A DNA stretch of 38,432 nucleotides from Escherichia phage T7, in the sequence record PV223882. One strand, written 5' to 3'. Made by a program: the position numbers and the translations under genes. Positions 925 to 1,619 of the stretch are shown piece by piece. Within the stretch, counting starts at the first letter, position 1, and every line of letters starts with the position of its first letter. The notes beneath the pieces are model-generated. The model did not search any database and was not told the DNA's origin. It was given only the letters and a program-made list of their open reading frames with translations.

Positions 925-1320
925 ATGGCTATGTCTAACATGACTTACAACAACGTTTTCGACCACGCTTACGAAATGCTGAAAGAAAACATCCGTTATG
1001 ATGACATCCGTGACACTGATGACCTGCACGATGCTATTCACATGGCTGCCGATAATGCAGTTCCGCACTACTACGCTGACATCTTTAGCGTAATGGCAAG
1101 TGAGGGCATTGACCTTGAGTTCGAAGACTCTGGTCTGATGCCTGACACCAAGGACGTAATCCGCATCCTGCAAGCGCGTATCTATGAGCAATTAACGATT
1201 GACCTCTGGGAAGACGCAGAAGACTTGCTCAATGAATACTTGGAGGAAGTCGAGGAGTCGCACGACAGAAAGAAATTGACCGCGCTAAGGCCCGTAAAGA
1301 ACGTCACGAGGGGCGCTTAG
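925..1320 (+). CDS. ocr: Gene 0.3 Ocr anti-restriction DNA mimic with a replaced C-terminal tail (deletion-junction fusion)
   Basis: Translation matches Ocr through ...NEYLEEVEE, then 20 unrelated basic residues read out of frame from the gene 0.7 3' region. Confidence 0.9.
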
Positions 1321-1619
1321 AGGCACGCAGATTCAAACGTCGCAACCGCAAGGCACGTAAAGCACACAAAGCTAAGCGCGAAAGAATGCTTGCTGCGTGG
1401 CGATGGGCTGAACGTCAAGAACGGCGTAACCATGAGGTAGCTGTAGATGTACTAGGAAGAACCAATAACGCTATGCTCTGGGTCAACATGTTCTCTGGGG
1501 ACTTTAAGGCGCTTGAGGAACGAATCGCGCTGCACTGGCGTAATGCTGACCGGATGGCTATCGCTAATGGTCTTACGCTCAACATTGATAAGCAACTTGA
1601 CGCAATGTTAATGGGCTGA
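1260..1619 (+). pseudogene. 0.7: 3' remnant of gene 0.7 (protein kinase / host shut-off), lacking the N-terminal kinase domain
   Basis: Frame encodes the C-terminal ~120 aa of gp0.7 (...[14 protein letters not shown]...LMG*); upstream stop in frame at 1233; only an internal ATG at 1386. Confidence 0.8.

Follow-up and report, generated by a model that had tools for sequence, protein, structure and literature searches.

A very probably engineered early-region deletion in recombinant phage T7-B-GJ imitates a recurrent spontaneous T7 deletion plus one base and sets ocr and gene 0.7 out of frame

In laboratory passage of bacteriophage T7 in rich medium, a spontaneous deletion appears between two direct repeats, which removes 1,480 bp and creates an in-frame fusion of 231 amino acids consisting of Ocr, the product of gene 0.3, and the C-terminal 120-121 residues of gp0.7. 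Wild-type T7 has the 13-bp direct repeat AGGAAGTCGAGGA at positions 1244 and 2724; Isaev et al. 2020 (PMC7261183) give it as 12 bp with the same two starts (Supplementary Fig. S1). These authors place the deletion at 1256-2735, equate it with Studier's H1 deletion, and cite Cunningham et al. 1997, where it is reported as well; Heineman & Brown 2012 (PMC3470554) write the same spontaneous deletion as 1257-2736. The "1.4 kb deletion" seen in heat-adapted T7 lines is this classical early-region deletion as well (PMC8923235). Six database records (MZ375235/36/38 and OL964748-50) contain the in-frame junction together with an annotated 696-nt CDS. Outside T7, "protein 0.3" of Yersinia phage YpP-Y (JQ965700 / NC_047939, positions 931-1617) is an in-frame fusion of Ocr to the gp0.7 C-terminus of 228 aa, from which the intervening genes have been lost. 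Since YpP-Y is a different Teseptimavirus species with its own fusion, the same kind of deletion arose independently there. In YpP-Y the junction is shifted 9 bp leftward relative to T7 (...EYLEEV/ARQKEID); it is in frame and belongs to a phage isolate, whereas the locus described below lies in what is very probably an engineered construct.

The natural T7 fusion has been characterized with respect to host defenses. A phage carrying the in-frame fusion is able to overcome EcoKI, whereas restriction of a 0.3 deletion mutant is about 1,000-fold (Isaev et al. 2020, PMC7261183). Against BREX the fusion has a partial effect only, and shortening its 0.7 part restores anti-BREX activity; Isaev et al. 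conclude that Ocr can dispense with its last seven residues (PMC7261183). The C-terminal part of gp0.7 is thought to contribute to the shut-off of host transcription (Isaev et al. 2020, PMC7261183), and in the natural fusion this shut-off region is expressed at Ocr levels.

The stretch of DNA analyzed here (sequence record PV223882, hereafter the window) spans 38,432 bp and represents a complete phage T7 genome, bounded by terminal repeats of 160 bp. When aligned to the wild-type T7 reference NC_001604 (39,937 bp), window positions 1-1256 match reference positions 1-1256 with 0 mismatches, and 1257-6127 match 2738-7608 with 1 mismatch; the 1,481 bases from 1257 to 2737 are absent. The deletion call is a comparison with a reference genome, hence chance is not at issue. 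Placement of the junction is ambiguous by 3 bp (AGT), so that 1259-2739 is an equivalent notation. The deleted interval contains genes 0.4, 0.5, and 0.6A/B, E. coli promoter B (1514), and gp0.7 residues 1-239, and E. coli promoter C has moved from wild-type 3113 to window position 1632. A reading made from the sequence alone had proposed an early-region deletion that fuses ocr with the 3' region of gene 0.7, with loss of genes 0.4-0.6 and the kinase domain, and a start of gene 1 about 1.48 kb earlier than in wild type. The alignment bears out each of these points: the region is not colinear with the reference, the wild-type bases 1256 and 2738 abut next to the 13-bp repeat, and the start of gene 1 is at 1690, against 3171 in the reference. 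The features of the locus are as follows.

925-1320, plus strand: Ocr(1-111) followed by a 20-aa out-of-frame tail, 131 aa, stop codon TAG at 1318-1320.
1244-1256, plus strand: retained left copy of the 13-bp direct repeat (wild-type copies at 1244 and 2724).
1256-1257, no strand: deletion junction, where wild-type 1256 abuts wild-type 2738 and 1257-2737 (1,481 bp) are lost.
1257-1619, plus strand: residual 3' part of gene 0.7 (wild-type 2738-3100, codons 240-359), without a link to an efficient translation start.
1386-1619, plus strand: internal ORF of 77 aa corresponding to gp0.7 residues 283-359, the sole in-frame start for the shut-off region.
1690-4341, plus strand: gene 1 (T7 RNA polymerase), shifted leftward by 1,481 bp from its wild-type start at 3171.

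The sequence-only reading had also likened the locus to the classical T7 early-region deletion strains, a comparison that holds for position and fails for frame and origin. As in the classical deletion, the left end lies inside the 13-bp repeat, genes 0.4-0.6 and the kinase domain are lost, and Ocr residues 1-111 are kept. However, the classical deletion has both ends in the repeats with the downstream sequence unaltered, whereas the window additionally lacks A2737 when compared with MZ375235, so that the natural junction GAGGAAGTCGC reads GAGGAGTCGC in the window, one base fewer. The classical event removes 1,480 bp, arises spontaneously in passage, and yields the in-frame Ocr::gp0.7(240-359) protein (231 aa, as in the fusion ORF of T7_20L); the window has lost 1,481 bp, leaves the frame after residue 111, encodes an ORF of 131 aa, and carries a junction that is spelled out in a published primer (pBAC-T7-S1-3-F) and design table (Table S2), described below.

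The first 111 residues of the 131-aa ORF are identical to T7 Ocr, up to ...EYLEEVEE, and the acidic YEEDEE is the sole part of Ocr that is lost. The ORF contains the complete Ocr domain (Pfam PF08684, "DNA mimic ocr"; profile positions 1-101 of 101 matched by residues 3-103, E=1.9e-64, 214.9 bits). The 20 residues that follow include 6 K/R and 1 D/E, with a net charge of about +5. Wild-type base 2738 is codon position 1 in gene 0.7 and codon position 3 in the ocr frame; the tail is therefore gene 0.7 read out of frame, a consequence of the one extra base whose deletion is specific to the construct. The description given from sequence alone, of Ocr continuing into 20 basic out-of-frame residues with loss of its acidic end, is thus accurate. 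The ORF keeps the original start and ribosome binding site of ocr, for which the predicted anti-Shine-Dalgarno pairing is -7.2 kcal/mol (gene 1, -5.8; gene 10, -8.8). Judging from the nucleotide sequence, this strong ocr site would drive translation of Ocr(1-111) plus 20 aa, ending at 1320.

The remnant of gene 0.7 is in a different position. Its frame is closed upstream by a TGA at 1233, and the ATG at 1386 is the first ATG, GTG, or TTG that follows; the anti-Shine-Dalgarno pairing predicted for this ATG is -0.9 kcal/mol, which is essentially no Shine-Dalgarno sequence and agrees with the earlier suggestion that the C-terminus stays in frame only from 1386 with a weak ribosome binding site. 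A Pfam search of the residual 77-aa ORF gave no match. The C-terminal shut-off region of gp0.7 is thus predicted to be uncoupled from translation, with no meaningful expression expected. Since the N-terminal kinase domain is also absent (codons 1-239 deleted), the phage is probably null for both the kinase and the shut-off activities of gp0.7.

Database comparisons point to a single family of constructs as the source of this junction. In a megablast search of window positions 700-1900 against 50,697 phage records, PV223880, PV223881, and PV223883 were identical across the junction, and these three SMART records, named "recombinant T7-B", "T7-B-G", and "T7-B-J", were the only ones among the 50,697 with the frameshifted junction (PV223882 itself did not come up in this collection). 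The exact junction sequence had no match in IMG/VR viral contigs. Up to position 21671 the window has the sequence of PV223881 (T7-B-G), and beyond that point that of PV223883 (T7-B-J), in both cases base for base. The window is therefore T7-B-GJ, the phage listed as PV223882 in Table S1 of Zhang et al. 2025 (mBio 16:e03582-24; PMC12153263). T7-B-GJ is the chassis with both lysin cargos, and the window contains both. Within the family of T7-B, T7-B-G, T7-B-J, and T7-B-GJ (PV223880-PV223883), T7-B-GJ shows no difference from the window, which has its junction, its six other deletions, and its two lysin cassettes.

In the SMART method, T7 is cloned as ten BAC-borne segments (F1-F10) that overlap by 40 bp; recombineering serves to modify them, and reassembly by ExoCET precedes rebooting (PMC12153263). 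The left 5 kb was split into S1-1 (1.2 kb), S1-2 (1.5 kb), and S1-3 (2.3 kb), which gave F1, F2, and F3; the authors called S1-2 "dispensable according to previously published results", and their assemblies of T7-A and T7-B omit F2, passing from F1 to F3 and the segments after it (PMC12153263). Table S2 of the same paper lists the non-essential region "gp0.4-0.7" at NC_001604 positions 1,257-2,737 (1,481 bp), attributed to Yuan et al. 2022. The window equals NC_001604 minus all seven Table S2 deletions, exactly except for 5 SNPs up to wild-type 24005. The forward primer for F3, pBAC-T7-S1-3-F (Table S5, PMC12153263), has the phage-specific part CAGAAGACTTGCTCAATGAATACTTGGAGGAAGTCGAGGAGTCGCACGACAGAAAGAAAT, and its 60-mer has 1 exact match in the window, across the junction, and 0 in shuffled sequences. 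The matching stretch is the following.

1217-1276, plus strand: primer-encoded stretch identical to the 3' 60 nt of pBAC-T7-S1-3-F, comprising the 40-bp F1 overlap (wild-type 1217-1256) and wild-type 2738-2757.

Because the junction sequence is carried by this primer, the junction is synthetic. We are highly confident that it was man-made in the synthetic phage T7-B-GJ, by omission of F2 and with a primer-encoded sequence, and that it imitates the recurrent spontaneous T7 deletion plus one base. Under this scenario, the deletion interval would have been drawn from a list of non-essential regions, segment F2 (wild-type 1257-2737, "gp0.4-0.7") left out of the assembly, and F3 amplified with a forward primer bearing the last 40 bp of F1 ahead of wild-type 2738; since the F3 primer carries the F1 overlap, F1 and F3 would join directly. 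The engineered interval would thereby run one base beyond the natural deletion, to A2737. The text of PMC12153263 does not comment on the reading frame at the junction or on the intent of the extra base, which may reflect a deliberate choice or an off-by-one in coordinates. As a separate observation on the segment design, the 40-bp overlap of F3 goes to F1 and not to F2 (Table S5 primers S1-2-R and S1-3-F, PMC12153263), and F2, which ends in ...AAGGAAGTCGAGGAA, appears to share no more than the 13-bp repeat with the start of F3. F2 is part of the wild-type reboot, T7-C, and T7-D.

The junction falls exactly at a known deletion hotspot, and this raises the alternative of a spontaneous event, in which a deletion between the 13-bp repeats was followed by a 1-bp deletion, or in which a single slipped mispairing with a bulged A removed all 1,481 bp at once. 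Selection on BREX+ hosts does yield mutations that truncate the fusion within its 0.7 part (PMC7261183), so the product would have a precedent. We nevertheless regard a spontaneous origin as very improbable: a synthetic primer and a design table spell the exact junction, the six remaining deletions are likewise exact and designed, all records that show the junction belong to one construct family, and the stock from which the authors worked had an intact early region, because F2 was cloned from it. Slightly less probable still is the idea that the A is absent through a mistake in sequencing or in the record, with the phage itself having the 1,480-bp deletion and the in-frame fusion. The discrepancy is a single base within an AA dinucleotide, and whole-genome sequencing was applied only to T7-A through T7-E, with the other rebooted phages, including T7-B-GJ, checked by PCR and Sanger sequencing (PMC12153263). 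Against such an error, the primer with which F3 was built already lacks the A, whole-genome sequencing confirmed T7-B, three sister records show the junction of the window, and the stated size of 1,481 bp agrees. A one-step slipped mispairing through the 3-bp AGT microhomology is rejected in view of the primer and Table S2. Derivation of the chassis from the CiPGr genome-reduced T7 isolates (MZ3752xx and OL9647xx) is rejected as well, since these carry the in-frame junction and OL964749 has a different gene content.

The engineered deletion cost little in the authors' hands: the reported burst size of T7-B, which lacks F2, was 197+/-9, compared with 206+/-10 for T7-D, which contains it, and plaques were comparable (PMC12153263). 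With regard to host defenses, the sequence-only reading had suggested that anti-restriction behaviour may be altered, and the published mutants described above (the fusion that overcomes EcoKI, the dispensable last seven Ocr residues, and the anti-BREX activity of fusions with a shortened 0.7 part; PMC7261183) oppose a loss of that activity. By analogy with these mutants, the 131-aa protein is probably a functional Ocr that keeps its activity against type I restriction, and the truncated Ocr probably has anti-BREX activity too. The BREX-escape derivatives of the fusion (Isaev et al. 2020) consist of Ocr of ~110-111 aa followed by a short stretch of unrelated residues or by a premature stop within the 0.7 part, and in them Ocr is freed from gp0.7, as it is in the window. 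They arose under BREX selection through nonsense mutations or a duplication that adds 11 new residues, whereas the window has a 20-aa basic tail from a designed frameshift made without selection. On this comparison, the 131-aa protein appears closer to the BREX-escape variants than to the natural fusion. Its basic tail of about +5 on a very acidic DNA mimic is unlike any tail tested by Isaev et al. and could interfere with Ocr.

Taken together with the predicted silence of the 0.7 remnant, the published mutants lead us to propose tentatively, and at rather less than even confidence, that the T7-B chassis differs from the natural fusion strains in that Ocr(1-111) plus 20 aa regains full anti-BREX activity and the shut-off region is no longer made. 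If this is true, the chassis would be better at evading DNA-targeting defenses and weaker in host takeover, which matters for its use on wild E. coli strains.

Five further designed deletions in the window match Table S2 of PMC12153263 exactly.

6127/6128: junction of the designed gp1.4 deletion, NC_001604 7609-7764.
6560/6561: junction of the designed gp1.7 deletion, NC_001604 8198-8733.
9094/9095: junction of the designed gp3.8 deletion, NC_001604 11268-11558.
10814/10815: junction of the designed gp4.3-4.7 deletion, NC_001604 13279-14297 (1,019 bp).
13000/13001: junction of the designed gp5.3 deletion, NC_001604 16484-16821.

A heat-adapted T7 line has a spontaneous deletion at 13,278 of 1,019 bp with the 7-bp homology TTCTTGA (PMC8923235 Table 2), and the designed gp4.3-4.7 deletion equals it in position and length, making this a second design that copies a natural microhomology hotspot.

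Two cargo cassettes are present in the window. The first (1,587 bp, 16288-17874) stands in place of wild-type 20109-20208 within gene 7.7 and leaves a truncated 7.7 ORF at 15994-16290; it contains a T7 promoter, a pET-type ribosome binding site, and a His6-tagged endolysin of 507 aa with CHAP, Amidase_2, and SH3_5 domains, which is annotated in PV223881 as LysGH15 from Staphylococcus phage GH15. The second (829 bp, 21671-22499) lies directly 3' of the gene 10A stop codon and contains a T7 promoter, a ribosome binding site, and a 254-aa CHAP+SH3_5 endolysin with a C-terminal His6 tag, labelled LyJDSS3 in PV223883. With this insertion, the extension that the -1 frameshift adds in minor capsid protein 10B is 9 residues long rather than 53 (...FQSGVIIRLTIGL, followed by a stop); the 10A ORF is labelled "gp10B" in the sister records. 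The ends of T7 DNA are terminally redundant and blunt, not cohesive, and the 160-bp direct terminal repeats are labelled "cohesive-end site" in sister records PV223880/81/83. The same three records annotate zero CDS between 161 and 1689, and the 131-aa Ocr-derived ORF is unrecorded.

The window has 19 single-base differences from NC_001604, at window positions 4830, 7781, 11458, 15859, and 20441 and at 14 positions between 22583 and 35904. Two of the substitutions, wild-type 24088 G>A (10B E375K) and 34975 A>G (gp17 T118A), are common to the window and laboratory-adapted T7 (PMC3470554 Table 2), which suggests a common laboratory-stock background.

The deletion itself is already known, as a documented engineering step in a published phage that was modelled on one of the best-known spontaneous T7 deletions, and its biological weight is small. 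The practical point is that the construct and the natural deletion should not be equated: with one more base removed, the in-frame fusion gives way to a truncated Ocr and a probably untranslated 0.7 remnant. The GenBank records annotate nothing at this locus. Users of the chassis who work with restricting, BREX-carrying, or otherwise defended hosts should heed this non-equivalence.
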